From: Rhizaria sp. SCN 62-66 | Lineage: Eukaryota | Length of the DNA stretch: 51,269 nucleotides | NCBI GenBank assembly: GCA_001724265.1 | Contig: MEDY01000385.1 | Coordinates: 1-51,269, forward strand | Direction of reading: 5' to 3' | Shown: positions 1 through 51,269 of the stretch, piece by piece | How the letters are laid out: every line of letters starts with the position of its first letter | Numbering within the stretch: position 1 is the stretch's first letter | The notes under the pieces: model-generated | Database searches by the model: none | The model's input: the letters and a program-made list of their open reading frames with translations, nothing else | What the model was told of the DNA's origin: nothing | Made by a program: the position numbers and the translations under genes

Positions 1-137
1 AGGCGGGGTGGGGACCGGGGTGGGGGTCTCATTGGGCGGGAAGGGGACCGGGGTGGGAGTCTCATTGGGCGGGAAGGGGACCGGGGTGGGAGTCTCGTTG
101 GGCGGAGTGGGGACCGGGGTGGGGGTCTCGTTGGGCG
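1..137 (-). repeat. 33-nt coding tandem repeat (~4 copies visible) encoding PPNETPTPVP(F/T)
   Basis: The plus-strand unit ~gggaaggggaccggggtgggagtctcattgggc recurs with a 33-nt period and is truncated by the window edge. Confidence 0.9.
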
Positions 138-765
138 GCACGACCACAGGGGGCGACGGGACAGGGGTCTCGTCGGCGGGGAACGTGAGGTCAGGGTCAA
201 CCACGACAAGGTCGTCGTTCTCGGCGTCAGCGTCGGCCTCGGCCTCGGCGTCGGCGTCGAGCTCGTACTCAACCTCAGCCTCAGCCTCGGACTCGTACTC
301 AGCCTCGTACTCGGCCTCAGCGTCGAGCTCAGCCTCAGCGTCAACCTCGGCCTCGGCGTCAACCTCGGCGTCAACCTCAGTCTCGGCCTCGGCCTCGGCG
401 TCAGCCTCAGCGTCGACCTCGAGGAGGACGATGCCCATGTCCTTGAGACCGAGCTCGTTGTTGAGCTCCTCGTCGACCTCGGCGGCGATCTGGGCCTCCT
501 CGCGCGAAACGGAGTCGAGGTCAAGCTCAGCGTCAATGTCAACCTCGGCCGCGGCAGAGTTCTCCAGGTAGCTGAAGCGGGGGAGATCGACGTCCGCGTG
601 CGGGGCGGCGTGGGCGGGCTCGCTGTCCTCCAGGTCCAGGCCAAGAGACTCGAGGGCCTCCTGGACCGTCAGCTCCGCCTGAATGATCGGGGAGAACTGC
701 GCTGCGTGAGTGGCGACAAGCACCGCACTCAGCGCTGCAAGCATAGCAAGGATTGTCCGTGACAT
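1..765 (-). CDS. Secreted/surface acidic, Pro/Thr-repeat protein (3' end runs off the window)
   Basis: Not in the ORF track because there is no stop inside the window. ATG at 765-763 follows a probable 5'-UTR intron acceptor (ttgcag|G ATG). It reads MSRTILAMLAALSAVLVATHAAQFSPII... (signal-peptide-like), then an Asp/Glu/Ala tract (EVDAEAEVDAEAELDAEAEYEAEYES), then NETPTPVP(F/T)PP repeats. The frame is open to position 1 with GC3-rich codons. Confidence 0.85.
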   Translation of the reverse strand, partial: MSRTILAMLAALSAVLVATHAAQFSPIIQAELTVQEALESLGLDLEDSEPAHAAPHADVDLPRFSYLENSAAAEVDIDAELDLDSVSREEAQIAAEVDEELNNELGLKDMGIVLLEVDAEADAEAEAETEVDAEVDAEAEVDAEAELDAEAEYEAEYESEAEAEVEYELDADAEAEADADAENDDLVVVDPDLTFPADETPVPSPPVVVPPNETPTPVPTPPNETPTPVPFPPNETPTPVPFPPNETPTPVPTPP

Positions 766-1633
766 CCTGCAACGCTTACACACTGTGAAAGCGACGAAAG
801 AAAGCGGACGAGTCGGGCAGCGTTCATGAGAGAGCAGGCGAAGGAGGAAACAATGGGAGAAATAGAGGGTGAGCGAAACGTCATCAGAGGCTCACGTGAT
901 ACGAAAGGATATAATCAATGTGGCAAAAACAGTTGTAAAAATGGCATAGCGAAAGGTCGCGGGGAACTAGCCACCAAGGACGACTAGGCACACAACCATC
1001 GCCTCCCAAAGAGAAGCCCTCCCAAGGAGCGTTACAGCCTCCCTGCAGAAGGCCTAGATAAACCCATTCGCATCTGTCAAACAAGCAAGGAATGCATTGT
1101 CTAGATTAAATGTCTCTCAAATTGCCACAAATGCATAGTCGCAGGATTTGGTGCTCTAATCAGCCCTTTTCGTCAACTTGACTTGCCCCCTTAGAGAAGC
1201 TTCTCCCACAAGATGACCGTGAGCAGCCGAAAAAGCGACGACTTTTTCGGTCCATGCCCATCTCACCACACCATCGAATTGTTCATTATTCGAGTTCATG
1301 TCAACTTGAACCCAGACTTTTGAGGTATAAATATCGTTTTTTGTAAATTCATATGTGTCATTATTTATTATAGTGGCAGAGAAATTTCAAAAGTCTTGTT
1401 CTATAGAGAGATGTAGCTGCGGAAGGGCTAATCTTATAGGCGGTTCTCGTTCAAAAAAACATCGTTATGTATCATGTTTCCAAACTCAATAAGCGTTAAA
1501 TCAATATTATGACTTGTAAATATTACTAAACTTAGCAAATACATATGTAAAGTGTTTTGAAACGTTCCTGTTATCGTTGTGTGATCACATCTGTGATGCT
1601 GCTGATTTTGACTATGGAGCTTTAGATATTCCC

Positions 1634-4600
1634 TCAGAGCGTCGAAATGGCGTTGTCGATCTGCATGACCCTGTTCATGGCCGACTCAACCCCCATGTGC
1701 AGCTGCAGCTGCAGCTCCGGGTCGAGCGCGGCCCGCAGCCGCCCCGCGGCCTCGTCGGGCCCCGTGAGCGGCAGCGTCGCCCGCACCAGCGCGCGCACGT
1801 GTTCCGCCACGCCCCGCAGCGCGGTGCGCGTATCCGCCGTCCGCGCGGCGGCGTCGCCCGCCTCGCCCTCGCCCGCGCCCGCGCCCGCCTGAGCGGCCTT
1901 GATGGCGGCGACGGAGCGGGTGATCCAGGCGAGCACCGTGGGCAGCGCGTTGTCGAGCACCGAGAGCACCTCGAGCGCCTCCTCGGCGGTGAAGCTGGCG
2001 CCCAGGGGCGACACGGCGAGCACTGCCGAGACGACCGCCAGACACATCTCTTCGTCGAAGTCGTCCTCCTCGCCCTCGTCAGCAGCAGCAGCAGTGTAAA
2101 CAGCGGAAGCAGGAGCATCATGGGCAGCGGAAGCAGGAGACTTGCTATCGCTGTCGCCGAGGAGGGTCGCACTCCCCGCGTCGCTCGCCTGCGTGCTTTG
2201 ACTCGGAGTGCGCGTGTCAGCGGACTGGGTCGAGGACAGCTGGAGCCCGTTCAGCATATCCGAGCCCTGGGCGTGCTGTTGCTGCAGCTGCCTCTGTTGC
2301 TGCTGCTGGAGCACCAGTTGCTGCTGCTGTTGCAGCTCCAGTTGCTGTTGCTGCAGCTGCTGAAGCTGTTGCAACTGCTGCTGCCGCAACTGCTCTTGCT
2401 GCTGATGGAGCTGCATTTTCTGCTGCTGCTGCAACTGTAACAGCTCCTGCTGCTGCTGTTGCTGCTGCATTTGATGCTGCAGCTGCAACTGGGCCATCTG
2501 CTGCTGCTGGTGCTGCTGCAACAGCTGCAACTGGGCCTGCGCTCTGGCAGCAGCTGCGTCTGCGCTCTCCGCTTGACTCTCCTGAGCCTGCGCCTGCGTC
2601 TGCACCTGCGCCTGCGCTGCCAAATTCGCCGCCTCCTGTTGCTGCACCTGCAACTGCTGCTGTTGTAGCTGGCTTTCCTGCTGTTGCTGGGCATAATGCA
2701 TTTGCTGCTGTTGCAGCTGTTGTTGCTGTTGCAACTGCTGCTGTTGCAGCAGCTGCTGCTGCTGTTGCTGCTCGTATTGCTGAGGCTGCAGTTGCTGCTG
2801 CTGCTACTGCTGATGCTGTGCCGCCGTGGCTGGCGCCCCCAGCACAGCCTGCAGCGTCGCGCTCGCGCACTGCGCGACGTCGACGCCGCTGTCGCCGATC
2901 GCGGCCGCCGAGGCGACCGTGACCTCGGCCAGGTGCTGCGCCCCGCGCGCGGCCAGCTGCGTGCTCGCGAACTCAAGCGTGCGCCGCGTCGTCGCCGCCA
3001 GCCCCTGCAGCGCCTGCGTCACCGTCGCCTGCGCGGCGCCGTCCTCGCTGCTGCCGTCTTCGATGCCGCCGTCCTTGCTGCCGCCAAGAGCAACGGCGCC
3101 GGCGACCTTGTCGACGAGGGTGAGGTCGCGGCCGCCCTCGAACAGGTGCCCGTAGGTCGGGAAAGGCAACGCCAGCGCAGCAAAGACGCCGCGGTTGAGC
3201 GTCTGCCCCAGCAGGCGCGTGGCGGCGGCCAGCGCGAGCACCGTGTCCTTGGCGGCGAGCATTACTGTCGCCGTCAGCGCGCGGCCAGCGTCTTCGGTCG
3301 TCACGGGGATGTACAGCGGGCGCGCGACCAGGATGTCGCGCGACACGTTGCAGCTTGCCACGGCCTGCGCGGCCTGGATCGTCTCGGGCGCGATGCCCAG
3401 GTTCAGCAGCGTCGCCGCCGCGGGCACTAGCGCCTCGACCGAGAGCAGCAGCGGAACGAGCCGCGTGATGAGGAAGTACGCTTCGAGCGCGACGCCGTTA
3501 GACTGTGAAGACGGGTGCGACTGGGCGAGCGCCGCGGCCGAGCCCACGAGCGTGGCCCAGTCGGCCGACGCCTCCGCGCCGCCGTGCAGCAGCGCGGGCG
3601 GCAGCGGGGCGGGCGCGGCGTCGGCCAGCTGCATGCGCTTGGGCGAGTAGGCGCCGAGCGCGGGCCACACGCGCACGGCCGCGGCGAGCGCGCGGCGCGC
3701 CGACGCCGTCACGAGCCCCAGCAGCGACTGCAGCGTCGCGGCGGCGAGAACCCCAGACGACAGCTGGAGGTGCTTCTGCGTCTGCTGGGCGCCCGCAGCG
3801 CGCCACGGCACGCGCGCGTTGAGCGCCTCGCGCTTCGTGAGCCACATGTGCGCCGCGTTTTGCAACGCCGACAGCGTCACGAGGAGCGGCGCCAGCGGCA
3901 GCGCGCTGGGCAGGTGCAGCGCGGATGCGGCGCCGAGCAGCGGGCAGGCTGCGACGTCGGCCGCTGGGTCCACGAGCTCCAGCGGAAGCGCCTGGTCCTC
4001 CGTGAAGGGCGTGGCAAAGCGCAGCGGGGGCATGCGCCAGCGCGGCGGCAGCGAAATGTCGCCCGCGCTGAGTTGGCGTAGATGCCGCAGCGGGCGCAAG
4101 TTGATCCGAGCGGCCTTGGGCTCGGTCGCGGCCACCACGGCCGCCGTGGCGTTGCGCGAGAGCACCACGGCCGGGTCCCGGGCCGCGTGCGCGAGCGCGG
4201 CCGTCATGGCGGCGTGCACAGTGGAACGGTGGGCGGCGTCGGTGGAGACCAGCGCCGCGGCCGCCGAGTCGCCCTGCGGCTGCATGCGCACGCCGGAGCC
4301 GGCGGGGCTGATCTGCTGCTCAAGGCTGGAGAGCGTCTGCTGCATGTCAGGCAGCGGCATCTGCTGTTGGTACTTGAGCAGAGCGTGCAGCTTTTTAATC
4401 ACGGGCAGCGCTGAGTAGGTCTGGCCCTGCACACCAGCAGCAGCAGCTGTAGCAACAATATCAGTAGCAACAGGAGAAGCAGTAGCAGAAGCAGCAAGAG
4501 CAGAAGGAGAAGTAGCAGGAGCAGCAGCAGCAGAAGGCGCGCCGCTGGTCAGAAGGCCGCCGCCGACGCCGCCAGCGCCGCCAGCTGCCTGGTCGCCGAG

Positions 4601-7600
4601 CGCGGACGGGCCGCTGAGACCTCCGTCTCGCGGACTCTGTTGCTGTTGTTGTTGCGATTGTTGTAGATGTTGCTCACGTTGCTGCCGATGTTGTTGCTGC
4701 TGCCCATCAGCAGTCAAGTCGGCACCCGAGCTCGGGCTCGCCCTGCCAGCACCGAGCGCGTTGATCGTGTTGAACGCCTCTTGACCGGCAGCCTTCTGAC
4801 GCGCCCGCTTTTGAGATTGCGGCTCAGGCGCATTCGGAGGACTCGGACGCAACTACCCCTGCTGCTGGAGCGGTTGCTCTCGGCCGTGCAGCTCAGGCGG
4901 AGTCTGCGCCGCGTCGAGCAACGCCGCTTTAGCGTACGCGCGGCACGTGCGCAGCAGGTAGTGCAGCCGCGCGACCGCGGCCGTGGCGAGTGCGTCGAGC
5001 TGCCCGGGCCGCAGCGGCACCACGGGGTACATGAGCGGCGGCATGACGGGCATCGAAGTCACGTTCCCGTGCACGCCCGGCGCAGCGAGGCGGCAGATCT
5101 GCGCGCGGAAGCTGCTATCAGGAGCGTGTACGCCTGCGTAGCGGTCGCGCAGCGGGTTGGGGTGTGAGCTGTACCGCAGCCCTGGGACGACGGACGCGTC
5201 CTCGGTCGCGGCCTTCTGCAGCAGCGACAGCTGCGCCTGGCGGACAGTCTCGCGGCCCACGGCGGCGAGCAGGCCGTGGTAGCTGTACCACTCGCGCGAG
5301 ATCACAGTCACCAGCGGGAAGCCCACGCGCGCCTCCCAGCCCGCTCTGTTGTTCGCGACAGTGTCAGCGCCCGCGTGGGGGGAGCTCTGGGGCGAGCCCT
5401 GGGGCGGGTCTGCGAGCCCGGCGATCATGGCGTCGCTGACGCCGGGACACAGCAGGCCGCTGTAGTTGATCTGCACGTCCGCGTCCGCCACCGCTGGCCC
5501 GTGCATGTGTTTGGGCCAGCCGCCGCCTAGCACGATGGACCGGAACGGCAGGTCGCCGTGCGAGAAGACGCCGAGCATCCACCCGTGCTGCGCCGAGGTC
5601 AGCAGGCCCGCGAGCGCCGCGGCCGGAGCGCCGGCGTTGGGGTTTGATGGCACGAGTGCCCGCGGCACAAGGCGGTCGAAGCCGAGGCGGTGCGCGGCCA
5701 CGAGCAGGTGCCGGTCGAGCTCGCAGCTCCACCAGGCGGCCGGCAGCGGCGGCGTGCCCGCGCTGGGGCCGTGCGGCGCCGCGGCGCTCAGCGCGAGCAG
5801 CGGCATCGGGTGCGCCGTGTACGCGGGCGGCCACATCGTCATGCGCCGGCCCGTTTCCGGGAGCGTGACAACGTCCGCGGACGCCGCGCACTGGCGCGCA
5901 GCTTCGGGCGCGCCGTCGCTGCCGTCGGGAGCTGGCGGCGGACACAGGTAGCCCGTCGCGCGGTCGATCAGCCAGCGCACAGGCACCGGCTCGGGGGCCG
6001 CGTGCCGCTGCGCATACTCGGCCTCAGCCAGAGTCAGCGCGCTGGGGGCCGTCGGCTTGGAGTCAGTCTCAGCAGCTGACGGCTTGGAGACGGCGTCCGC
6101 GGCCGACGATGAAGATGAGGACTCGGACGCAGCCTCGGGCTTAACCTTCACGTCAGCTGAAGCGGCGTCAGCTGGGGCAGCAGCAGCAGCAGGAGCAGCA
6201 GCAGCAGCAGTCTCAGACTCAGCCTTGACGGCAGCAGTCCCGGGCTCAGTCTTAATGACAGCAGCCCCAGACTCCGTCTTGACGGTGGTCCCGGCGCCGT
6301 CCGCCATTGCGGCGCCAGCAGGCGCACTCACACACGCACTGCCGCCCTCAGGCTTGACATCCGTACTATCAGTCATTTGAACCGGTGCGGCCGCTGCAGT
6401 CGCTTCACCTGCGGCAGTCGCCCCAGCCGCTCCAGCTGCCTCAGGCACCACCGGAGCAGGAGCCGCGGTCGCAGCGGTCGCTTGAGCCGCGTGCGCGGCC
6501 GCAACGGCCCTGTCGCGCGCCGTCCCGCGCTCGATGGCGGCTTTGTACGCGGCCTCCATGCCGACGCGCGTGGCGTGCCACCACTGCAGCGAGCCCTCGA
6601 GCGCGCGCAGCCCCGAGGCCACGGTCGGCGGGATCGGCTCGTGGACCACGGTGGCGCCCGCGGTGCCGTGGCCGCCGCGCGGCGCCGCGGCGGGCCCGGG
6701 GCTGGGCAGCGGGCCGAGCACGGGGCGCGCGAACAGCCGGTCCAGCAGCGCCTGATCCGAGAGGGCCTCGAGGAGCACCGGGAGCTGTTGGTGCAAGGCG
6801 TCGCTCGACGGACCGACGTTCATAAAGGCCTGGTTCAGGGGCAGCATCGGCGACAGCAGCGTTGACGCCACGGCCTGCGCCGACATGAAGGAGCGGAAAA
6901 AGGGCCGCGGGAGCGGGTTCGAGTCTGGCAGCGCGGACGCAAGCTCCTCGGCCGACCGCGCCAGGGCGGCGGTGGCGGCGGCCGCGGCCTCTGCGTCGTC
7001 ACCGTCGTCCGGAATGAACAGCCCCGCGACATCGCGGCCGGCGCGCAGGTTGCTCAGCCGCACGATCGGGTCCAGTAGCGTCTCAGGGGTGGCGAGCATG
7101 GCCTCCTGACTGCAGCCGCGCGCCGCGGCCTCCGAGGCAATGATGCGCTCGATGATGGGCCAGACCTGGCCCTGCGCGACGCCGAACACGGGCGCCTCGA
7201 TGCGCACGCAGATCTCGCGCAGCTCAGACAGCTCGAACGGCGCGTCGATAAGTGTGCGCGTCTCCTCCTCGGTCGCGCCCGCAGCGGCAGCCACAGCGGC
7301 GCGCCGCTCGCGCGCCGCCGCCACGGCCTCCATGAGCTGGAAGCGCAGCGTGAGGCGCAGCGACAGGAACGCCGGGTCGCGCCGCAGGACGGGCCCCATC
7401 GTGGGGTTGACGGTGACCATGAGGTCGTGCAGCAGCGCGGGGTCCTGCAACAGCGGCGTCACCGAGAGCGGGGCCGACACGGCTAGCCGCGGCGCCGCGG
7501 AGTTGGTGAAGGCCACAGGCAGCACAGACTGCAGCGGCCCGTCGGCCGGGTACGCCTCCCCAACCCGCAGGCCGAGCGCGACGAGCTCGAGCAGGCACCG

Positions 7601-10600
7601 GTACTGGCGGGCCGCGTCGCCGCGGTCCAGCTGTGCCGGCGTGGCGCCGCGGCCGACGTTCTCGGCCGTGGCCACGGTCATGACCGCGCCAGCCGAGACG
7701 GCGGCCACGGTGACTGGGTCCGAGCCGGGCGGGAGCGTGGCGAGCTGCGCCAGCGCGGGCGGCATGAGCCGCAGCATCTCGGGCGACTGCGCCTGCGCCT
7801 GCAGCTCCGCCAGCGGGACGGGCAGCGCGAGCATTGGGAAGTGCCATGTCGACGCGATCGAGTGCAGCAGCGCGACCTTGATGGCGGAAAAGGCGTAAGA
7901 GCGCAGCGCGTTGTCCGAGAGGTCAATGTAAGGCGTGAACCGCGCAAGCACTTGGTCTGGCACTGGCGCGACGCCGAGGCGGAAGTTGCGAATGAATACC
8001 CACGGCGTGCGCGGGTCCTGCTCCAGCGTGCCCTGCGCGATCTCCGTCTGCAGCGTGCGGCGGATCTCGCGCCAGCGCCCGTAGCCGAAGCGCGCCAGCG
8101 CGGCGACGAAGGCCGTCAGCGCGGCGGGCCACAGCTGCGAGTCCCTAAACGAGTACCCCACCGTCGCCGTGGCGAAGTCTGGCAGCGCGGACGCCGGGAC
8201 CGTGACGGCGCCGCGGAACATGGGCGGCGTCACCGGCAGCGGCTCTGCGCCCGTGTACACGCCATCGGTCGGCAGCACCATCTGCTCGATCCGCGCCTGC
8301 GCGCCCTTCACCGACGTCACTTCGATGCCGTTGTAGGACCAAATCTGCGCGGCGGCCGCGGCAGCGGCCGCGGTTGCGCGTGCGACCGCCTGGGCGGCGC
8401 GGGCACTCATCTTCTTGGCGCCGGCGCCCCTCGCAAGCCCGTCAGCAGCACCTGCGGCAGCACCGGCAGCGCCAGCGCTAGCAGCAGCGGCGGCGGTGGC
8501 GGCGTTGGCGGCGGTGTTGCGATGCGCCGCCGCGGCCGCGCCACCGCGCGGGGCGGCCCCACGCTCGGGCACATAGTCGACGTCGCTGTCGGTGTCGCTG
8601 TTGTCCGAGTCGTCCATGTCGCTGCCGCTGGACAGCACCATGTCGGCGTCGCGCTTGGCGGCCTTGCTGCCCTTAACGTGGCGCATGACCGTGACGTCGT
8701 CGTCGGCGTCCATGCCCGCGAAGCTGCCCTTGCTGCCCGCGCCGGTGCCGCCCAAGACGGAAGCCACGGCGGCGGCGCGGCGCGAGCGCGGCTCCAGCAT
8801 GAAGGCCCCGCCGTCGCCCTCGAGGCCGAGGCCTAGGGAGCGCGCGATCTTCTCTTGCTCCGTCAGCGCGGCGGGTGCCAGGCCAATCTTCTCCCAGAAC
8901 AGCGGGTCGTCAAGATCCACGTTCGCCGCAGCGCCGCCCTCGGCCGTCTCGACGAACACCGCGCTGGCGAAGGCGTTAGCGGCCGCCGCGGCTTCCTGCT
9001 CTGCGGCCGAGATCGTGGTGGTGGAGGCCATGCTCGAGGTGCCGTAGAGGATGCGCTCGATCTCGTCATCGGTGATCTCGCTGCTCGCCTCCGTCGCCGC
9101 CGTGGTGCCGTCGCCGCCGCCCTCGAGGAAGACGCTGTAGGCGCCCTCGCGTAGCAGACGCTCGATGTCGCGCGCGCTCGCAGACGTGCTCTTAGACCGC
9201 TTTGACTTGGACACGACGCCGTCCTCGTTCGCGCCGCCGCCGCTGTCGGCCGCGGCCTTCTTGCCCTTGCCCTTGCCCTTAGCGGCTTTGCCCTTGCCGG
9301 CCTTGCCCTTGGCCTTGGCCTCAGCGTCACTGTCATCGCCGTCGTCGTCGCCGTCCTCACCGTCGCCGTCGTCCTCGTCGGAGGACGACACAGTCTTGCC
9401 TGCTTCTGACACCTGCTCGGTGACGTTGTGCAGCACGGCACGCTCGAGCCCCAGCTTGCGCGAGGCCATGTCAAACATCTTCTGCTCGTACGAGCCCTTT
9501 GTGATGAGCCTGAACACGCGCACCTCCTTCTTCTGACCGATGCGGTGCGCGCGCGCCTGCGCCTGCACGTCCTGCTGCGGGTTCCAGTCCGAGTCGAAGA
9601 TGATCACCGTGTCGGCCGCGGTCAGGTTGATGCCGACGCCGCCGGCGCGCGTCGTGAGCAAAAACACGAACTTGTCGCTGTCGGGCGCGGAGAAGCGGTC
9701 GATAGCGGCCTGGCGCGCGTTGCCGTGCACGTCGCCGTCGATGCGCTCCATCGCGAAGCCGCGCGCGTCGCAGTAGTCGTGCAGCAGGTCCAGCATCAGC
9801 TTGAACTGGGAGAAGATGAGCACGCGATGCCCGTCGCGGCGCAGGCGCGGGAGCAGCTTGTCAAGCAGCTTCAGCTTGGCGGAAGGAGCAGCGAAGAAAT
9901 CGCCCTAATAAAAAAATGTGTGTCAAGTAACAAAACATGGAATGAATTCAATTTGAGCTTGCTCAAGTATTAGAAAAAAATGATTTTGTTATAAGACAAT
10001 GCATAAATATGTTGGAACGATATCGACGTCGTTTCGTACCTGGAACTCGCGCTTCTGCCGCGCCTCAATCGCGGCCCTGGCCTCCAGGTCTGGCGCCGCC
10101 GCCAGCTCGGCCGCATTCCGCCGGTTGACCGCGGCCGTGATCTCGCCCGCGTGCGCGGCCTCGAGCCCGTCGAGCAAGAACGGGTGGTTGCAGCACTTGC
10201 GCAGCTGCATCGAGATGTTCATCATTGACGGCACCACAGCGTCGGACGCGCTCTTGCGCGCCAGCTCGTGCAGAATCGCCGAGTTGCGGTCGAACACGGC
10301 CTTGTAGTATGTCTTCTGCAGCGGCGTGAGCGCGACCTGCACCAGCGTCTCGCGCAGCGGCTTGAGCGCCTTCTCCACGTTGGCCTTGTTGCGGCGCAGC
10401 AGGAACGGCCGGATGAGGTCGTTGAGCTGCGCGACGTCGGCGCCGCCCGTGAGCTCGCCGTATTTCTCCAAGAACGCCGCCTCGGACCCGAAGCCGGCGG
10501 GGTGAAGGAAGTGCAGTAGCGCCCAGAGCTCGGACATGTTGTTCTGGATCGGCGTGCCCGTGAGCAACAGCCGGAAGCCCGTCTTGAGCTTGTTACAGAA

Positions 10601-13600
10601 CTGGTAGAAGCGCGCGTGCGGGTTCTTGAGCCGCTGCGCCTCGTCCACGATGAGCAGAGTCCACCGCAGCTGCTGCAGGTGCGCCGAGTCGGCCAAGAAC
10701 GACTCGTAGCTCGTGATGAGCACGTTGAACTTGGTGACGCGGTTGCGCTTCAGTTCCGGGATCGTGCGGCCAGCGTCGTCCTTGTACCAGAACTCGAGCT
10801 CGCGGATGAGCCGGCGCGACTCCTCGTCGCCCTGGTACACCACGGCGTTGAGGTCCGTGCACGCCGCCACCTCGCGTTGCCAGTGCGGCAGCGTTGACAG
10901 CGGCGCAATCACCAGCGTCGGCCCACGCACAGACACCACGTCGTGCAGGAACTTCACGAACGCCACCGACTGCATCGTCTTGCCGAGGCCCATTTCGTCC
11001 GCCAGGATCGAGTTGCGGCGGTTGATGTAGTTGAACGCTAGCCATTGCAGCCCGTCCTCCTGGTACGCGCGCAGTGACCGGCCCGACTTAAACTGCATCG
11101 CCTGCACCTCGCCCATCAAGCGCCGCTGCAGCGACGGCAGCGATGCGATGTACCGCGCGCGCGCCAGGGCGGCCGCTCGCTCTGCGGCGGCCTCGGCAGC
11201 CTCCTCGGCAGTCATCTGCTCGGCGCCGTCGCCGCTCGCGAGCGTGAGCGTGATGTCGGACGCAGACGTGGGCGCGGCAGGGTCGAGACGGGTGCGCGCA
11301 AGGGCCAGCGCCTCCTGCTGCGCGGCCTGCCGCTGCACGATCGGCGACGACTTGGCAACGGCGTGCGCAGAGGTGCGGAACTCCTTGGCGCGCGCGCTGT
11401 TGCGGCCGGCATCAGCGTCGGCGTCGTCGCTGTCTTCCTCTTGCAACGCGCGCTTATTGCGCTTGCGGCCGCCGCCGTCGTCGTTGTCATCAATGGCGCT
11501 GCCGTCGTCGTCGGTGTCGCTTGAGCCTTGCGACAGACCCAGCACCTCCTGGCCGTGCTCGTCATCGTCGCTCCCAGAGCCAGCGCGCGCGGCGGCAGAG
11601 CCGGACGCAGCGGCAGCCGTGGCCTTCTTGCGCGAGTGCTTCAGCAACTCCTCGGTGAACTTGCGTTTGGCAGCGGTAGCGCTCTCGCTCTGCGCGCCCG
11701 CGGGCTGCTCGGACCAGACGTGGAAGCGTTCCATGGCGTCGTCGTCGTCGAGCTAGTTGACGTCCACCCACGTCGCCTCGCCGTAAGGCAGCGAGCGCCA
11801 CTTGACCAGCAGCATCACGTCGCCGGTGCCTGTGTTGGGGAAGAACGCCAGCGGACCGCTCGCGTTGTTCGGTCCGTGTTTGCCGCCCCGCTGCTGCGGA
11901 GCGTCGATGCGCCACTCGAGCACACGGTCGACCTCGCAGAAGTCCGGGTCGAAATACTGTCCGTTGGCCCACTCCTCGCTGTTGGGTAGCCCCTCTGCCT
12001 CGGCCTTGTTGCGCCAGCGACGGATGTGTGCTGCGCACATGGCCGTGGCCCACAGCGCCGCGCGAGGCACCCACACTACGTCGCGGAAGCTGCGGCCGCG
12101 CAACTTGAGCAGGAACTGCGTCTGCGTGACCGTGGTGCGCCGCACCGGCGCCAACAGCGTCACGGGCCGGTGCAGCCGCGCCTCGTGATCGGCCTTAGCA
12201 GCCGCGGCGGCGGCCTCGCCGGCGGCCAGCGCGGCGGCCTCGTCGCTGCCGGCGGCGCGCGCGGCCTGCACGGCGGCGACACGCGCGGCCGCGACCTCGT
12301 CGGCGGCGGCGCGCGCGGCCCTGCGGCCTTGCAGCTTCTCCTTGACGAACGTGTCAAGCAGAATGTCCGGCGACATGAACTGGAACGACACAAGCAGTTG
12401 CAGAGAGCTGTGCAGGTTCTCGATCGAGATCTCCTGCAGCAACGGCTCCGTCACCACGACCGAGGGCGCTGTGCCGCGGCTAATCACGGCCTGCTTCGCG
12501 GCTGCGCGGAGCTCGGCCTGCACCTCCCCGTCGAGTGCGGACAGCGCCGTCGCGCCCAGGGCCCTCGCCGCGGCATCGGCCTCGGTCAGCACCGCGGCCT
12601 GCGCGGCAGCGCGCGCGGCCATGATGGAGACGAACGGGAACGGGTTCGGCAAGTACGACGTTTGGTTCAAACTGTGGTCGAAGCCGCCCGGAAAGACTAT
12701 CTTCAGAGGGGCGAGTGCGGCAGCCGTGGCCTTGCTGTGCAGATCCGCAGCCGAGGCAGCCAAGGCAGAGGCCGGCGGGTACAGGTGAGCAATGTGGGGC
12801 GGAAACGGCCCGTCGGCTGCGGCGACCACGGAGCGGCGTAGCGCGGGGTCAGCTGGGAAAAACACGTTCAAACGGTCCCAGGTACCGTACTCGTCATCCG
12901 CTCTTGAAACATGGGCCGCCCCACTCGCACTCGCGCTCGCGCTGGCACGGCTACCGCTGTCGGTCATCGCGGAACCAGCGCGAGCGCCGGCGTCCTTGTT
13001 ACTGTTGGACTCGGCCGCGTGCGCGTGCGCATGCGCCGCAGACCCGTGCAGCACTGTCGTGCGCGCCGCCTCGCGGCCCTCGGCCAGCTCCTCGTTAGCG
13101 TAGGCGTCGCCGCGGCCCCAACGTACGGCCGCGCGCGTGTCGTCTTCCTCCTCGTCCTCGTCCGCGGGCTCGCTACCCTCAGACTCGCTCGCGTCGGCCG
13201 CGCGCGTGTCGCTATCCTCAGTCAGTTCGACCTCGGACGTGTCGACGTCGGACCCCAGCCCGTGGCTCCCGTCGCCGTCGTCGGCGTCCACACCCGCGGC
13301 CGACTGCAGCCGGTGGTGGCGCTGCCGCTGCGGGTCGAGCAGCGTGCGCATCTCGCGCCGCTCGCGCACGATCTCGGCCTTTTTGCGCGCCACGCGCTGC
13401 CGTAGCCGCGCGTCGCGGGCCGCCTTGAGCCTCTTCTTGGCCGCCGCGTCCGCCGCGGAGACGGTGGGGACCGCGTCGAGCTTCTTCTTGGCGAGCCAGT
13501 TCTGGCGCACGCGCCGGCCGAACCGCACGAAGGCGTTGCGGATCTTGGTGTTCTTCTTGAAGAGCGAAATGAGGTCCGGCAGGGACTTGGTGCCGAGACA

Positions 13601-15735
13601 GAGCTCGCATCGGTACGCGCCCTCGGGCACGCAGTCGAGCTCGACGCAGAACGGGTGGTACGGCCGCGTGCACGTGTCGCATAGCAGCAGCTCGCCGCCG
13701 CCGCCGCAGATGTGGCACTCGTCGGCCGACGCGGGCGGCTCGACGTGGAGCTCAAACACGCGCTGCTGCACGAACGCGAACTCCTCGCGCGGAACCGCCT
13801 GCGTGCGGAAGCAGTGCGCAGACTGCACAGGCCCGTAGCCCGGCAGCTCCTGCACGCCCGTCGCCTCGGCGTCATAGTGCGCCACGCACAGCGCGCCCGG
13901 CCACCGCGACGCGGGCTTGTCCTTGGCCGACGACAACGGGGCCTGGGAGCGCCGCAGCCCGTTGGGCGCGGTCAGCAGCTCAAGGTCGCGCGCGCGGCGT
14001 TCGCGGGCCGCGCGGCGCTCCTCTTTGGTCTCCTTCGCGGGCGCCGGCTCGGCGGCGGCCTTGCCCTTGCCCGCCTTGCGGGAGTCAGTGCGCTTGCCGC
14101 CGCCGCGCTTGTCGTGCTCGCGCTGCCGCTCGCGTTCCTGCTTGCGCTCCTGTTTGGAGCGCAGCGCGGCGGCCTCGCGCGCGGCCTCGGCGGCGCCCGC
14201 GGCCGCGCCCGCGCCGGGCTGCTTGGTGCCCGGCGGCCGCCCGCGGCCGCGCGGCGTGGCGGCGCGGTCATCGCTGTCGCTGCCGCTGCCGCTGCCGCTG
14301 TCGCCGTCGCTGCGGGCCCGGGCCTTGGAGCGCGCGCCGGAGTCTGCCTCAGAGTCTGAACCAGAGCCAGAGGCAGAGCCGGAGCCCGACGCGGAGTCCG
14401 AGATGGCGACAACGTCACTGTCACTCTCGTTGTAGTTGCTGTTGCTGTCGTCATTGTCCACGTCATCGTGCACAATGCGCGACCGGCCACGCTTCCCGGC
14501 GCCCTTGCCCTTGTCCTTGTCCTTGCCCTTGTCTTTGTCGCGAGAGCTTTTTCCGCTCTTGCCCTGACTGCGCTTGCTGCCGTCACGGTCCTTGCGGCCC
14601 TTGTCGGCGTCGCCGGAGCCCTTCTTCGAACTCGCACTCACACTGGGGCTCAAGCGAGGGCGGCCGCGCCCTTGACCGGAGGGGGCGATGCCCTTGCTCC
14701 GGCCGCCGTCGCCGTCGCCGTCGTCGTCACCGTCGCTGCCGCTGCCGCTGCTGCTGCTGCTGCTACTGCTATCGAGCTTGTAGTTGACGGCGGCGCGCGC
14801 CCGGCGGACCGGCCGGCCCTTGTTGTCATTGTAGTCGCCGTCGTCGTCGTTGTCGCCGCCGTCAGCATCCTCGCTGTTGTCGTTGCCGTCGGCCGGCGTC
14901 GCTAAGCGGGAGCCGCGGCCACTGGCCCGACCACTGCGACTCGCACTCGCACTCGTACTGGCGCTCGTACTGGCGCTCGCGCTGGCGCTCGCGCTGGCGC
15001 CGGCCAGTGGGGTGCCAGCAGCAGAGCCAGCGCCCGCGCTAGAGCGCGAAGGAGGTGCGGGAGGGCCGTGGGTCTGACCCTGACTGTGGTTATTCGAAGG
15101 GCGACTGCGCTTCACGCGGGCGTCAATGTCGATGTCACTATCATCGTCGTTGATGACAACTTCGTCGTCGTCGTCGTCGTCGTCGTGCGTTGCGCGGACG
15201 TTATCTGAGTCAGAGTCAGAGTCTGCGGGGCCGGCGCGGGCGGCAGCGCGGGCGTTGGCCGCCGTCGCGGGGTTGCTGTTCTGGTTGCTAAACATGTGGC
15301 CAAAGAAGCGTGACAAACACGGAGGCGTTACAAGCACATAAGATGAACAAAGAGACACAGGTAAGTATGGGCGAGTCAAGGCGGATCAGAATGACTTGAT
15401 ATAGCGAGGAAAAAGTTGTTAAAGGGTTAGTGTGCGTACGTAGGAGGACTTGACGAAGCAAGAGAAGCAACAGAGCCAGTTTTGACGCCATTGCCGCTGC
15501 TGCTTGTGTCGGCTGCGGAGCACGACAGAGACGAGAGCGAGGCAGAAGAAGAAGGTGGCAGAAGAGCAATATGTGAGCGTGAAACAGAAATAAGAGCATG
15601 GCATAATGGAGTAACATGTGTGAAACAGAGCCCGTGAAGTGTGGGTTGTGTGTCCACCTGTTAAAGTTGTGAGATGATGGAGGAGATTGGGTGGAACGTA
15701 CCCATCTGACGTGCAGCCTCGGTGAAGCGACGCAT
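1634..15735 (-). CDS. CHD-family chromatin-remodelling ATPase (PHD + 2 chromodomains + SNF2/HELICc + SANT/SLIDE-like + polyQ tail), ~4,540 codons, with 3 in-frame TAG codons
   Basis: Exons are 15735 (or 15705)-15702, 15512-15440, 15287-10040 and 9904-1634, with GTACG donors, YAG acceptors and consistent phases. Motifs: [27 protein letters not shown]...CELC; chromo [16 protein letters not shown] and [102 protein letters not shown] (CHD6-9-like). Five ORF-track pieces join in frame through the TAGs at 11753-11755, 4853-4855 and 2804-2806 plus one intron. The gene ends at TGA 1634-1636. The 5' exons are less certain. Confidence 0.9.
2270..2820 (-). repeat. Imperfect CAG/CAA polyglutamine tract in the CHD C-terminus
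   Basis: Long runs of (CTG/TTG)n on the plus strand; translation is Q-rich with interspersed L, H and M. The tract contains the in-frame TAG at 2804-2806. Confidence 0.95.
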
Positions 15736-16768
15736 GCAGATACCGCTTGGGAATCGCGGCAGTCACTAAGTGGAGCAGACTAACAACAAAGTGAAACCGC
15801 TGTCAAATGTAAAGGTGGCCAAAAAGGTTAGAGAACGCAGATCTGTGGACAAAGGGCGGAAACGGTGGGAAGAACGGCGGGAGTGAGAGGGATCGGGGTG
15901 AGCATCGGATCAACACTGCGCATCACTCAAAATAGGTCGAACCTTCCGACAGCGAAGGTATAAAGTGCGTATAACATAGGAAACACATAAATTTAATATG
16001 CCGGTTTACTAAATTCTTATTCGACTCAATTAGACGTGACACGACCTCGCAGACGAAAAACGCGCGAGTCCGACGCTGGGAGCGACTGGGCGGGGCCCGC
16101 TCGCTACAGATACAGCTACACGTTTCTGACGCTCATCACTCGCAGCCAGCCATGGAGAAGAAGCGCTTCGTGGCTGACTCACGTGCTTGAATTGAGCGGG
16201 AAGGGCGACAGCTGGCGCGATAGTTTGTAAATATTCGGCGTGAATAGTGCTGGAAAATAACGTCGTTATATTCATTGGAGTCAAAGACGGGAAACGAATG
16301 CGTATATTCCCCGAAAGATCCTTCTCAGGACAACCTCCCCAAGCGAGTGCGAGGTCTTCATTGCTGGATATCTCCCCTCAACATTCGTGTAATTGCCAGG
16401 AGCGCTTTTTATACGATAAATCGCTATTAGATTCAATTGTTTCTTTTGTATTTCATTTCCGTCAGAGTTGCTTTCTAGGGTAACGTCACTGTTTCTCGCC
16501 CAACAAGGTCAACGTCGATGGGCGTGAGTCGTTAGTCTCTGCCTAGCCACCTTCTAACTCACGACTCAGGTCCTTTATGCAGCTCAAAGAGAACTATAGT
16601 ATCTAATTTTGTATTAAACTCATCTTATAGTTTTTCACACTTTGCCTATTTCCTCTCGTCTTTGCTTCCTGTAGTCATAACACCGCTAAAGAAAGAGCAT
16701 TCCCTTCCCGACCCTGAGCTTTCTCCTTTCCCGTCCTCGCGTGCTCCTCCGTCTGCTTTCCTCTCGCG

Positions 16769-17257
16769 ATGTCGACCGCCTCAAGCGCCGCCTCGTACCG
16801 GCCGCGCACCGCGGACCGGCTCACGATTGACATGAGCTCGCTTTCAGTCGGGAAATACCTCAACTCTTCCGCCGCGACAGCTCCAGCCCCATCAAGCACG
16901 ACCAACAGCTCCGCCGCTGCCGTCGTCACCTCTGAGTGCTCCCTCGGCAAGCTCACGCTCGACGCCTCCTCGACCGCCCTTACTCGCGCACCCGCGACGC
17001 GCCCTGGCACCGCTGGCGCCGCCGCCACGGCGTCCTCGTACCCCCTCGGCTCTCCGCTCTGCCCGCCCGTGGCGGACCCGACCGAGCTGCTAATCTCCGC
17101 CGCGCAGGCCAAGACGCAGCTCGTACTCCGCGCCTCGGCCTTCACGCAGGTGCTGTCTTCGCACTACGACGGGCCCGTTGCCGCGCCTGCAGACGCCTCC
17201 CCGGCCCCCGCACTCCCCGCATTCTCCTCCTCTGCCGCCCCTGCTGCCTCTGCTTCG

Positions 17258-17289
<32 letters not shown>

Positions 17290-20200
17290 AGCAGCGGCCT
17301 CGTCCGGCACGCACTACGCGCACCCGTCGCTCGCCTTCTCTGCGCCCAATGTGCCCGCGCCGTCCTCCTCCGCGTCTGCCTCGGCTGCGGCAGTGGCAGC
17401 GCTCTCGGCGCCCTACGCCAGCGACGTGCACCGCTGCAGCGCGCTCATCGCCGACTTCCTCGAGGACGCCCTGGGCGTCGACCGCGCGGCCCTGTACTAC
17501 GTTTCAGATTCAGAGGTCGGCGGACTCGCCCCGGACTCGCTCGACTTCGCCCCCGCGCACGCGCACCACGCCGCTGCCGCCGCCGCTGCTGCTGCTGCTG
17601 CCGCTGCGAATGTCGCCGCCAACGCTGCTGCTGCCAACGCTGCCGCCGCTGCGTCCGTGCCCGGCTCTGCCTCGTTCACGCCTAACACGGCCCTCGCAAT
17701 GAACGCGGCTGACGGCGCCCTGTCTGCCGCGAACGCCGGCGCCAGCTCCAGCTCCGGCTCCGGCAGCGGCAGCGTTGTGGGCTACGTCGCCGCCGGCTAC
17801 GACGACTTCCGCTGCCGCCGCGCCCCGCTGCGCTTCGCCGCCCACTCGCCCCTCGCGGACTCCGCCGACGCCGCCAGCACCGCGAGCAGCGCGGCCGCCG
17901 GCGGCGCCAGCGCCAGCGCCAGCGGCGGCGGCGAGCTGTGCCCGCTCGACTCGCTCCTCATCGGCCACGCGCTCCGCTCGGGCGCGCTCACCGTCTGCGG
18001 CGACCCTTTTAAGGAGCGCTCCAACACCGCCGGCGCGCAGTCCAGCCACGGCCTCGGCGCCGGTGCGACTGCGAGCGGGCTGCGGCTGGACGGCGAGTGC
18101 GACTTTGTGCTCGCGACGGGCTACCGCGTCGCGTCGTCGCTGGCAGTCCCGGTCCGCGACCCGCGCACGGGCGCCATCATTGCTGTCATCCAGCTCCTCA
18201 ACAAGCGCGCTGCCATTGCGGCGTCGGCCGACTCCGCTCCGGCGGCTGCGTCCGCTGCGGCTGCGGGCAGCGGTGGCAACGCGCTGCTGAGCCCGCTGAC
18301 GTCATCCTCTGCGTCGGCGACCGGCGTCGTCGTCTCAGGCGACTGTGACGCCGCTAACAGCGGCAGCGCGGGCAGCGCTGAGGCCTGGCACTTGGCGCTC
18401 GTGGGCTCCTCCGCCATCCGCAACAGCTCCAACGCCAGCAACGCGCTCAACGCGTCGACCAACAGCAGCAACCACAACGCGTACTACGGCGGCGCCATCA
18501 GAGTGCCCGTGCTCGCCCCGGTGGTGCCCGCGATCTTCTCCGACACGTACCTCGCGCGCCGCTCCACGCGCGTGCCCCTGCTCGCGCGCGCCACGCGCTC
18601 GATCGTCGCCGGCACGGCGCCCTACAGCGCGGCCAACGCGAGCAATAACAATAACAACAACAGCAGCAGCAGTAATAACGCGAGTGTTGCCGACGACGTG
18701 CTCGGCGCGCTTCCCGGCGCTAACAACAGCAGCAGCTCGTCGAGCCACCTGAACACGACTTCTGTCAGTGTCGCTGGAGCCGGCATGAGCGTTGTCGTCG
18801 ACAACGCCTCTGGATCTGGCTCCAACAACAGCAGCAACGCCGTCACGCCGACCTCGCGCCCCCGCGGTCTGTCCACCTCCGTGGTGCCGGCGTCGCCCGC
18901 GCAGTCGACCAGCTCCATCCAGCCCGCTAACAGCAGCAGCAACGCGAGCAGCTCGAGCAATGCGGCTGCCGGCCCTAGTGCGAGCGCGAGCGCGAGCGCT
19001 AGTGCAGTCGGCAAGCACACCCGCACGACGTCCCTGCACCGCCGCACCAGCTCCCTCATCGACTCTCTGCCCAACGCAGCCGTGCTCAACGGCTCCGCGG
19101 CCAGCGCCAACGACGGCGCGGCTGTTGCTGGCGTCGCGGGGGGCTTCCACGACTCGCTCCCGTCGCTCCCGTCGCCCATGTACAACAGCAACACGTACGC
19201 CGAACCTAGCAGCAGCAGCGCTGTTGCGAACAACGCGCTCTTTACGACTTTTTCGGTCCAGGACCTGGAGCTCACGCTGCTGCTGACGTCGCTGCTGGCC
19301 CCAGCGCTGTCTGCGCTGCACCGCGAGGCCCTGCTCGCCGCGCTCATCACGCCGCCCTGGCGCTCACTCACCAACACCGCCGTCGCTGTCGCGAACAGCA
19401 ACAGCAGCAGCAGCGCGAGCTTCGGCAGCGGCAGCAGCGCGAGCTTCGGCAGCGGCAGCAGCTCGAGCTTCGGCAGCGGCGTCGAATCTGTGGCGGGTGT
19501 GGCGGCGGCGGCGGTCACCGACTCCGACGGCGACGCCGCTGCGCATGGAGGCAGCAACACCAACAGCAGCAGCGACGTCGCGGCCCTGCACCTGATCACC
19601 TCGGCGTCTGGCGGCAGCAATAACGTGCATGCCAGCTCCAGCTCCGGCTCTGGCTCTGGGATGAAGACCCTGCCGCTTACATCGGCCACCTTCGCGCTCG
19701 CGCTGCCCTCCAGCAGCAGCGGCGGCGCCAGCGCCGCCAGCGGCCTCCCCAGCGGCAGCGGGTTGATCACCGCAAGCGCGACGTCAAGCGCCGCGTCCAC
19801 CGTCGTCGACTACGACAGCCTGCGGTCCTTCCTCTCGCTCTACCTCAACGACCGCACGGTCACGCGGCTGAACTTCCCGCCCGGCTCCCGCGCCGCGCTG
19901 CTCTGCGCGGCCGCGGCTACGACCTCCGTGGTGTCGTCCTCGGCCTCGATGCCGCCGCCCGTCGCCGCCGCCGCCGCCGCGACCGCCGCCGCCGCCGCCG
20001 CCGCCGCCGCTGCGCCTCTGTGGGCGCGTCCCCCGCTGCCGGCCTCTGCGCCGCCGCCGCTGACGCGGTACCCGTTCTTCTCGCTCCCGCGACTGGACTC
20101 GCTCGAGTTCAACGCGCTGGACCACAGCCTCGACACGCTGTGCGCCGCCGTGGTGGCCGTGCTCTCGACCTCGGGGCTGCTCGACGGGCTCCACGTCTCG

Positions 20201-21610
20201 GTCGCCTCGCTGTCGGCGCTTGTCTTCGCCATCTGCGGCAAGTACCGCGCCAACCCGTTCCACTCGTTCCACCACGGCTTCGCGGTGTTTCAGTTCGCAT
20301 ACCTGCTCCTGCGCCGCACCGACGCGCTGTCGTACCTCTCACCGCAAGACGCGCTCCTGCTGCTGCTGACTGCGCTGGGACACGACATCGACCACCCGGG
20401 CCGCACCAACTCGTTCGAGGTCGCCACGCGCACGCGCCGCGCCGTGCTCTACAACGACCAACACGTGCTGGAGAACCACCACGCGTACACGCTGCTGACC
20501 ATCCTGCTGCGCGACTCGGCTGCGGCCGCCGCGGCCATGACTTCGTCCGCCGCGGGGGCGCTAGGCTCGCCGCTCGCTCCCGCTTCTGGCGCCAACGCTA
20601 CCAGCGCCGCCTTGCTCAACAGCAACAGCGGCAACAACAGCGGCAGCGGCAGCAACAGTAGCAGCTCGAACAGTGGCGCCAGCGCCAGCGCCGTCGGCCC
20701 CGCGGGCGGTCTGTTCAGCCGCCTGTCGCGCCCGCAGCGGCAGAACGTGCGCGGCGTTGTCGTGAGCGCGATTATTGCCACCGACATGGCCGAGCACGTG
20801 GGCATGATGGACCGCCTTAAGGCCGTCTCCGTCGTCGTCCCGGCCCCCGCGCCCGCGGGCACGGCCACGGGCACCACGGCCGCCGCCATCGCCGCCGCCG
20901 TCCCCGCCGCCGCCGCCGAGAGCGCCGCCAACGTCGTTGTCGCCGTCGGCAACGGCAACAAGTACAACCTCGCGACACTGAGCGCCTACAACAACGCCCC
21001 CGGCGGCCAGGGCGGCTTCAAGGACGTCTACGACGGCGCTCCGCTGCCCGCGCTGTCTGCGTCCGCGGCCGCGGCGGCGCTGTCCCGCTCGCAGTCGCTG
21101 TCGCAATCGCTCGGTACGGGGCTAGGCCGCTCGCACAGCGCCGGCACCACGTCCGACGACTCCGTGGCCGCGTCCCCGACCGTCAACAGCAGCGCGGCGC
21201 TCGCGGCGGCTGTGGCGCCGCTCCGACTGTCGCTGCGCCCCGCGGTCGGCGCCGACCGGCAGCTGCTGATCAACGTGCTCGTGCACAGCGCTGACCTCTC
21301 GGGGCAGCTGCTCTCGACGCCGGCAGCCGCGGCGTGGGAAGCGCGCATCACGCAGGAGTTCCGCGAGCAGGCCGAGGAGGAGACGCGGCTGGGACTGCCG
21401 CCCGCGCCGTTCATGCAGAAGCTGGACCAGCCGCGCGTGCGCGCCAAGATGCAGGTGGACTTCATCGACTACGTGCTCATGCCGTGGTGGAACGCCGTGC
21501 TGAGGCTGTTTCCCATGCTGCAGCCGTGCGTCGACAACCTGAAGACCAACAGGGAGTTCTACATGTCTGTCGCTAAGGCCCCCGAGAGCGACGAGAGCAA
21601 CAAGGCGTAA
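16769..21610 (+). CDS. Class I 3',5'-cyclic nucleotide phosphodiesterase with an interrupted N-terminal GAF-like domain
   Basis: Single 1613-aa ORF ending in TAA. Catalytic motifs: [70 protein letters not shown]-like segments: [14 protein letters not shown]...[10 protein letters not shown] and FSVQDLEL. Confidence 0.93.
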
Positions 21611-29357: not shown

Positions 29358-29696
29358 CCGGGATTAAGGGAACTCTACAAAGTGAGACAAAGAAGACTCG
29401 GCACCACGGGTCGTCTCGTCAAGCCCGTCCCAGTCCGGCGCTCGGACCGTGGGCCGGCGGCTTAACTTCCGTGCCAACCACAAACCGATTTTTGGTTTCG
29501 AGAATGCACTCCAATGACTTGAAGCCAGTTCAAATTTGACTCTGTCCTGACATTCGTAGTAGTTATATTCTCATTATATTGCGCTGTTGCAAATTGACGT
29601 GGCTAATTCTGTTCTGCTTTGAAATCATGTTTCTTAGAAAGTAGGTCTTGCCCTCCAACAGATATCTCCCCGTGCTGCTCTTTCTCTCTTACGGGA

Positions 29697-47994: not shown

Positions 47995-48543
47995 ACAAAA
48001 GTCTGCAATGTGGTATTAACAGAAGTGTTGTTCAAAGAATTGGTTTTGATTTGTTTTGAGATACTAGTATAACTCCAACCTGAAATCTAGGTTAAGGTCA
48101 CGGCCATTTCAACTGAGACTCCGTCTAAGCCTAATGTGATTGTCACAATGTTATGTTGCTTGTGTTTCGTGTCCAGTCGTCGCGAACGCGTTGGCCACCT
48201 CGAGAGCGTTAACTTAACCAGAAATCTTGCTTATTGAAGGTTAACTATACACGAACGAGCTTTGTCCTCATTGTCTTATTTCATCGATCAATTACGTCAG
48301 TTGTGACTCCGTCAGCCATCTACTTACGATACGCAACATAGTAATTGGAACCCTCTCATTTGTAAGCCCAAATTCAACTAGTTGTTGTGTATAAACAGCA
48401 ATTTGTATTCACGGACATTTCAAACAAGTTCTCATCATAATCTCCAGCTCGGTACAGTCTTTTATCGAACCTACATTGTTCTCGTCCAGCGGTAGTTGAG
48501 GCAGCATAACTTGATTTTTACTTAGTTTCGTTGAAAAATCAAG

Positions 48544-48837
48544 TTAGAAAAAGCGGCCCCAGCCGCGGCCAAAGCCCCAGCCGCGGCCAAAGCCCCAGCC
48601 GCGACCAAGGCCCCAGCCGCGGCCATAGCCGTAGCCAAGTCCGTACGTAGGATAGTACGATCCGTACACCACGGGCGTGGTGTACATGATGGGCGAGTAC
48701 GTGGTCAGGCCGTAGCCGCCATAACCGCCCCAGCCGCCGTAGCCGCCGAAACCACCTCCGAAACCGCACGCGGTGGTTTGCTCGACCAGAAACGCGGCCG
48801 CCACGAGAGCAAAGAGCGCGAGGATCTTGGAGAACAT
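48544..48837 (-). CDS. Small secreted Gly/Tyr/Trp-rich protein (97 aa)
   Basis: GC-rich island within AT-rich DNA, ending in TAA. Signal-peptide-like MFSKILALFALVAAAFLVEQTTA, then GGF/GGY/GGW repeats and four GRGWG units. Confidence 0.85.
   Translation of the reverse strand: MFSKILALFALVAAAFLVEQTTACGFGGGFGGYGGWGGYGGYGLTTYSPIMYTTPVVYGSYYPTYGLGYGYGRGWGLGRGWGFGRGWGFGRGWGRFF
48556..48624 (-). repeat. 18-nt coding tandem repeat (GRGWG[F/L]) x4
   Basis: The plus-strand unit gccccagccgcggccaaa is repeated with minor variation. Confidence 0.9.
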
Positions 48838-51060: not shown

Positions 51061-51269
51061 ATGAAGGTACGCATAATCGCGTTTTGAGCGTCTCTCGCTG
51101 TTTTTCTGTGTTCTACCAACCCATTTACATCTCTCACTCCTGTCCACTCCCCCGTTTTCTTTCTCCCTCCACAGTACAACAAGGCCGTGTCCTCCAACGT
51201 GAGCAAGCTCCGCAAGGCGCACTTCACTGCCCCCTCCTCGGAGCGCCGCATCATCATGTCTGCGCCCCT
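51061..51269 (+). CDS. RPL26: 60S ribosomal protein L26 (uL24), 5' part
   Basis: ATG AAG (51061-51066), intron 51067-51174 (GTACGC...cacag), then [31 protein letters not shown]. This matches the eukaryotic L26 N-terminus (MK.N..VSS...K.RK.HF.APS..RR.IMS.PL). Runs off the window. Confidence 0.93.

Follow-up and report, generated by a model that had tools for sequence, protein, structure and literature searches.

A gene for a putative CHD-type chromatin remodeller, on the minus strand at 15295..1634 of the 51,269-base contig MEDY01000385.1 (0 N; the whole contig is called the window below), has three TAG triplets in a frame of about 4,500 codons. These UAG codons are genuine and fixed and stand in the mature CHD frame, and one of them is also found in RNA. 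The reading proposed here, tentatively, is that UAG is a rare sense codon in this organism, probably for glutamine (Gln). By rough likelihoods it is within a factor of ~2 of a second reading, in which the gene has recently died under the standard code, and it is ranked first only narrowly.

The three sites, first noticed in a first-pass annotation made from the sequence, were confirmed by minus-strand translation and in the DNA. The first (TAG1, 11753..11755, followed by C) is inside chromodomain 2; the second (TAG2, 4853..4855, followed by T) is in a poorly conserved linker, PLQQQG-TAG-LRPSPP; and the third (TAG3, 2804..2806, followed by C) is at the start of a long polyglutamine (polyQ) tract, in the context CAT CAG CAG TAG CAG CAG CAG CAA. 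With the translation cut at TAG1, the match to the Pfam Chromo family reaches 17.8 bits and misses the 25.1-bit cut-off, while the version read through it scores 27.5 bits (residues 95-127, with TAG1 as residue 115). Eleven CHD homologues align across this site without a gap. Since TAG1 falls in chromodomain 2, the ATPase is encoded downstream of it. TAG2 and TAG3 are in low-complexity sequence without an alignable homologue.

The gene consists of two exons, both on the minus strand, as are all its features. Exon 1 (10040..15295) runs from the first ATG and carries TAG1; it is supported by its translation, by the phase of G+C content at third codon positions (GC3), and by Pfam PHD, Chromo, and SNF2-rel_dom matches. 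Exon 2 (1634..9904) carries TAG2, TAG3, and a Pfam Helicase_C match, and ends in a TGA terminator at 1634-1636. The single intron between them (9905..10039, 135 nt, a multiple of three) is AT-rich, with G+C dropping to 0.44 in its block, has the form GTACG...TATTAG, and separates the two ATPase lobes. The exon-exon junction across 10039..9905 agrees with the protein of a relative, P0001, and a contig piece from one of the sequencing runs discussed below (X5) stops at 9903 and leaves 115 letters unplaced, which would fit splicing here. Between the first ATG and the terminator, 4,504 sense codons were counted in the exons, with no TAA, no TGA, and no frameshift. The initial description of exactly three in-frame stops and no TAA or TGA thus stands for the exons but not for the raw frame, which has TAA, TGA, and TAG at 9991-9905, inside the intron. 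The frame described at the same time as having ~4,540 codons is closed upstream of 15385, where it was anchored. Since no ATG of this frame precedes the one at 15295, the stretch 15296-15735 belongs to the 5' flank, and the coding sequence amounts to about 4,507 sense codons plus the three TAGs. Calling the DNA intron-rich was an overstatement, with a single intron in the 13.7 kb of CHD.

Coding signal is continuous through the gene. In a single frame, between about 15000 and 1700, GC3 is mostly between 0.8 and 1.0 per 50-codon block. This continues past each TAG, and lower values are confined to low-complexity tracts rich in GCT/GCA and CAA. Predicted domains include a PHD finger (13598..13717; PF00628, E 2.4e-5, residues 557-596 of the 11756-15385 translation), chromodomain 2, spanning TAG1 (11720..11818; PF00385, and the alignment with the 11 homologues), SNF2-related ATPase lobe 1 (10178..11065; PF00176, E 6e-76), and Helicase_C, ATPase lobe 2 (9536..9877; PF00271, E 6.5e-25). 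From this arrangement, with chromodomain(s) N-terminal of a bipartite SNF2 ATPase (SNF2_N + Helicase_C) and a PHD finger in addition, the product is predicted to be a CHD-type chromatin remodeller. PHD, Chromo, SNF2-rel_dom, and Helicase_C are in the canonical order of the CHD3/4/Mi-2-like remodellers (PHD, double chromodomain, SNF2 ATPase), and the product is 40-50% identical to named CHD proteins from stramenopiles, rhizarians, ciliates, and fungi. Compared with these it is far longer, at ~4,500 residues, and differs in its polyQ tract and its three in-frame TAGs; a tail of ~2,800 residues is common only to P0001.

P0001 is the nearest protein to CHD in a library of 5.8 billion sequences. 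It has 2,686 residues, encoded in one open frame on an 8,366-base Joint Genome Institute (JGI) metagenome contig, and is 67% identical to CHD in the ATPase, with the same ATPase motifs, including the DEAQ box. The earlier statement that the frame has no frameshift and that its ATPase motifs are intact was borne out by this identity and by the unbroken GC3 phase. The two proteins align in the same order on either side of the later TAGs: 299 aligned columns upstream of TAG2 are 30% identical (E 1e-21), and a conserved C-terminal block beyond the last TAG (1904..2035, GC3 0.96) is 61% identical to P0001 2530-2572 across 44 residues (E 1.3e-9). For the 682 residues that separate TAG2 from TAG3, no match was detected. 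Because P0001 aligns on both flanks, the ancestral protein spanned all three TAG positions.

The TAGs were also sought in independent data, by comparing Logan contigs of four runs (X3 to X6) with 1634-15735; the pieces mentioned here are a subset, and a contig comparison of this kind drops rare variants. Run X3, DNA from a study other than the likely source, covers all three TAGs with 0 differences over 2452-4609, 4620-6167, and 10549-14157. A contig from X4 (11622-12195) includes TAG1, with a single-nucleotide polymorphism elsewhere, at 12077. One from X5 (4417-4981), an RNA-Seq library rated as probably DNA, is colinear across TAG2. Run X6 is a polyA-selected metatranscriptome, and its contig at 4802-5285 retains TAG2 unspliced and continues 51 bases beyond it with 0 differences; further X6 pieces (1634-1940, 3956-4242, 6888-7591, and 13256-15070) lie along the gene, some of them downstream of TAG2 and TAG3. 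Among the pieces listed, RNA covers neither TAG1 nor TAG3. No difference listed for X3 to X6 is at a TAG, and all three TAGs recur, in sequence that is otherwise nearly unchanged, across four studies with run dates of 2015-2025. A protein piece beginning after TAG1 (P0121, 581 aa) has been recorded from five contigs. On the question whether reads might show CAG at these sites, the contigs have TAG at all three (X3), at TAG1 (X4), and at TAG2 (X5); on whether the TAGs are spliced or edited out of the mRNA, there is an outcome for TAG2 only, which is retained in the polyA-RNA contig. The three TAGs are genuine and not assembly errors.

These data bear most directly on the idea that the TAGs come from an artefact or a mis-modelled gene, through consensus errors, short in-frame introns containing the TAGs, or neighbouring genes that happen to be in the same frame. 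The CHD intron is a multiple of three, its last three bases are TAG, like those of the SMU1 introns elsewhere in the window, TAG2 is within a loosely donor-like GGTAGT, and G+C of about 70% yields long open frames by chance. Yet independent runs have all three TAGs, G+C around each of them is 0.65-0.73 as against ~0.3-0.44 in introns here, the X6 and X5 contigs are colinear across TAG2, TAG1 is inside a contiguous chromodomain alignment, and P0001 is one protein across the region. An artefact is largely refuted and is considered very improbable.

One other feature of run X4 concerns the same gene. Low-depth contigs at 9521-9629 and 10364-10418 differ from it almost only at third codon positions (e.g., 9521, 9524, 9536, 9542, 9554, 9572, and 9578), which suggests a sister species or a CHD paralogue in that sample.

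An intact copy of CHD was looked for among proteins, and none reading through TAG1 was found in two protein libraries. In a word-based library (lengths 979-3117) nothing exceeded 67% identity to CHD. A word-based search centred on TAG1 (lengths 330-1050) gave two proteins with E<=1e-20, P0121 and one relative at 47%. An exhaustive HMMER search with 600 residues around TAG1 against 1.84 billion representatives, a library from which the protein piece before TAG1 is itself absent, found only P0121 (100%) and P0001 (71%, residues 479-600) to be close. The cluster look-up returned single-member clusters. When metagenome contigs were searched with the SNF2 lobe, the best locus among the matches listed, which share the common motif EMGLGKTM, had 40% identity, and neither the window contig nor the P0001 contig was among them. 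An exact 40-mer search of genome contigs gave 0 matches.

How the three TAGs came to be there is the main point of uncertainty, and the strongest competitor to a sense-codon reading is a CHD paralogue recently inactivated under the standard code. A dispensable gene would have fixed one TAG (possibly TAG1) and then two more, each arising in a codon with G in third position, for example CAG, and the locus would still be transcribed, with a truncated product. This is given serious weight, nearly as much as the sense-codon reading, and like it falls short of an even chance. Its resemblance to a transcribed unitary pseudogene is that premature stops are in one gene only while transcription persists; it differs from one in having no frameshift, TAA, or TGA, in its intact motifs, and in its undiminished GC3.

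Several observations favour inactivation and at the same time count against UAG as a sense codon. An in-frame TAG is present in one of the ten genes examined, and there are 0 in the ~8,003 codons of the other nine (p ~0.05 by codon count), which agrees with the original statement that the other window codons have none. Expected stop counts, calculated from position-specific base composition, are 53 TAG, 5.7 TAA, and 4.1 TGA for CHD, where 3, 0, and 0 are observed, and 82, 9.5, and 9.4 for the other genes, where all three are 0. TAG is therefore at ~2% of compositional expectation, so that its avoidance is nearly as strict as that of TAA and TGA, and outside CHD equally strict. Nor is it telling that all three nonsense codons are TAG. 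Among single-base changes creating a stop in CHD codons, 73-75% give TAG (transition bias 1-4, GC-to-AT bias 1-3), so three of three has p ~0.39-0.41; it is weak evidence, and is what random nonsense mutations in CHD would be expected to produce. TAG3 is a CAG-to-TAG type of change within a CAG-rich tract, and both TAG2 and TAG3 are in unconserved sequence. The P0001 orthologue has no in-frame stop across its 2,686 codons. The TAG1 alignment column gives no residue identity, having T, V, E, A, F, A, D, D, D, D, and D in the 11 homologues and S in P0122. UAG would be 0.65% of the Gln codons here, compared with ~8% in Iotanema spirale, and the rhizarian exLh has 384 UAGs spread over 71 genes (PMC5304391). 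Transcription of the CHD locus is no proof of translation. ARAGORN found 0 tRNA genes in the 51-kb window and Rfam 0 matches, and no gene of the window encodes eRF1.

Other observations are difficult to reconcile with a dead gene. Nonsense changes are 2.6-3.4% of possible substitutions in CHD, so three of them imply ~100 neutral substitutions. The ratio of indels to substitutions in eukaryotes is usually ~0.05-0.1, and at that ratio several frameshifts would be expected, but there are none, nor any TAA or TGA, in 4,504 codons. The coding signal has not been lost, the GC3 phase is unchanged, and the ATPase motifs are identical to those of P0001. The TAGs recur in runs spanning a decade and four studies, and the gene is represented by RNA contigs along its length. 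Six of eight within-species differences in coding sequence are at third codon positions, though only one of those six is downstream of a TAG. The window is also without TAG terminators. Nine genes end in TGA (CHD, PPWD1-like, ORF719, SA, SMU1, and Serinc) or TAA (PDE, DUF7932, and a Gly/Tyr-rich gene), six and three times, respectively. This answers in part the question of whether TAG terminates genes elsewhere, with 0 of 9 having p ~0.08 if TAG were 25% of stops; the sample is small, and at p ~0.08-0.13 the count is compatible with the standard code as well.

A third possibility is leaky termination or programmed read-through confined to the CHD mRNA, with UAG still a stop and near-cognate tRNAs reading the three sites often enough to yield some full-length remodeller. 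C or T after a stop is a weak termination context in eukaryotes, and the bases following the in-frame TAGs are C, T, and C, as opposed to a purine after eight of the nine true stops; three pyrimidines at +4 have p ~0.11 by chance, however, which is weak. Coding signal and the conserved C-terminal block downstream of the TAGs would also fit read-through. Against this, with three stops to be read in succession very little full-length protein would be made, and none of the TAGs is followed by a known read-through motif (CARYYA type). We know of no programmed read-through gene with three internal stops. This explanation is regarded as unlikely, and what probability remains after the four readings belongs to causes that were not considered.

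If UAG is a sense codon here, as is tentatively preferred, ribosomes of the organism would not stop at UAG, and a CUA-anticodon tRNA, which probably descends from a tRNA-Gln, would insert an amino acid, while UAA and UGA would stay terminators. UAG would be a very rare sense codon, arising from CAG via C-to-T transitions, and its low usage would imply a reassignment that is young or inefficiently decoded. Reading through TAG1, which lifts the Chromo match above the cut-off, and, weakly, the pyrimidines that follow the three TAGs fit this reading. The checks that the first-pass annotation named as able to refute it, as far as they were run, did not do so. We infer translation of UAG, its means, and the residue alike. 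Gln is the likeliest residue, given that TAG3 adjoins polyQ, that a single step turns CAG into TAG, and that CHD has a large share of the Gln codons. CHD has 283 of the ~457 Gln codons counted, so that all three TAGs would be in it with p ~0.24 if TAG is Gln and would make up ~0.65% of Gln codons. It has 419 of 1,120 Leu codons, for p ~0.05 if TAG is Leu, which is less likely. The preference for Gln in the first-pass annotation comes solely from the polyQ context of TAG3, which hints at it; TAG1 aligns with a variable column.

UAG and UAA are nearly always reassigned together, and few lineages break this rule (PMC5304391, PMC11687900). In the fornicate Iotanema spirale, UAG encodes Gln, UAA is kept as a stop, and UAG makes up ~8% of Gln codons (Panek et al. 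2017, PMC5304391). In exLh, a sainouroid, UAG is Leu, and stops are UAA (56) and UGA (15) (PMC5304391). Uncultivated phyllopharyngean ciliates have UAG as Leu, Hartmannula and Trochilia have it as Gln, and Scotinosphaera has it as Ser (PMC11687900). Among the literature matches listed there was no report of UAG sense codons in stramenopiles.

I. spirale resembles the organism of the CHD contig, with UAG the only stop in frame, UAA and UGA as terminators, a context suggesting Gln, and UAG as a minority Gln codon. It has many genes with UAG, however, and conserved columns that give Gln overwhelmingly, compared with three codons, one gene, and no informative column here; the genome here is also GC-rich (GC3 ~0.9), and no link to fornicates is established. 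As in exLh, the phyllopharyngean ciliates, and Scotinosphaera, UAG and UAA would differ in meaning, and as in the ciliates the evidence comes from metagenome-assembled data. Those cases have hundreds to thousands of in-frame UAGs, and the ciliates tRNA-CUA genes as well, against the three UAGs here.

The window is a metagenomic contig of an uncultured eukaryote from wastewater and bioreactor communities, since in a run search by sampled words the stretch 2500-12000 recurs in bioreactor, wastewater, and activated-sludge runs from seven studies. At least half of its sampled words are present in four runs, and three partial-match rows are recorded as RNA. Its genes are very GC-rich (GC3 ~0.85-0.95), with AT-rich spacers and introns (G+C 0.36-0.5). 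The SMU1 gene (38275-40654, minus strand, TGA terminator) is an orthologue with at least four exons and at least three short AT-rich introns, each GTACG...TAG. A JGI metagenome protein, P0124, found among 5.8 billion proteins, is 72% identical to it, and ~90% in the WD40 part, with the same intron position; all other matches are at most 42% identical. So isolated a protein suggests that the lineage branches deeply among eukaryotes and has hardly been sampled. For SMU1 and CHD alike, only one metagenomic relative is closer than ~50%. Alignment of SMU1 against genome contigs gave 32 pattern matches and against viral contigs 42, with 0 relatives in either.

The remaining genes are a varied set. 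At the left end, a gene for a secreted repeat protein (1-765, minus strand) runs off the window; the predicted product has a signal peptide, MSRTILAMLAALSAVLVATHAA, followed by acidic Glu/Ala/Asp repeats and then PNETPTPVP repeats. There are also genes for a GAF/PDEase protein (TAA terminator), a PPWD1-like WD40-cyclophilin with several exons (TGA), the cohesin subunit SA/SCC3 (TGA), and Serinc (TGA). A DUF7932 protein gene of 1,396 codons (41550-45740, plus strand, TAA; DUF7932 E 4e-19) has a Gly-rich repeat region. An open reading frame (ORF) of 719 codons, ORF719 (29607-31766, plus strand, TGA), has no Pfam family, and its GC3 of 0.62, far below that of its neighbours, suggests that it may be fast-evolving or foreign. 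Two AT-rich islands (21650-24350 and 48000-51269, G+C 0.36-0.43) stand out in a contig with genes of ~70% G+C; no convincing ORF of at least 90 codons was found in them, apart from a gene for a small Gly/Tyr-rich secreted protein (48544-48906, minus strand, TAA). A dispersed non-coding repeat was sought in the window, but only low-complexity coding repeats were found.

Antisense frames of GC3-rich genes are free of TAA and TGA over hundreds to more than 1,000 codons yet contain many TAGs, for example 11 in the 1,204 codons of 16678-20289 (minus strand), so a frame that is open except for TAG is no evidence of coding unless there is homology or the correct GC3 phase. An ORF at 16191-16832, open only if its five TAGs are sense codons, was rejected as a gene because of its featureless translation and non-coding composition.

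The inference about the code is based on 51 kb of DNA. Should CHD prove to be a fresh pseudogene, the finding would be an ordinary one, and the lineage would still be notable for the scarcity of relatives of SMU1 and CHD. The alternative, which is a real possibility though not yet a probable one, is an independent UAG-only nuclear reassignment at an early, low-usage stage, with UAG probably as Gln, in a GC-rich, deep eukaryote outside the ciliates, fornicates, rhizarians, and green algae. It would be a UAG-only case in a new lineage, for which public DNA and RNA runs are available for testing, and a GC-rich genome with such extremely rare UAG would show the earliest stage of stop-codon capture.

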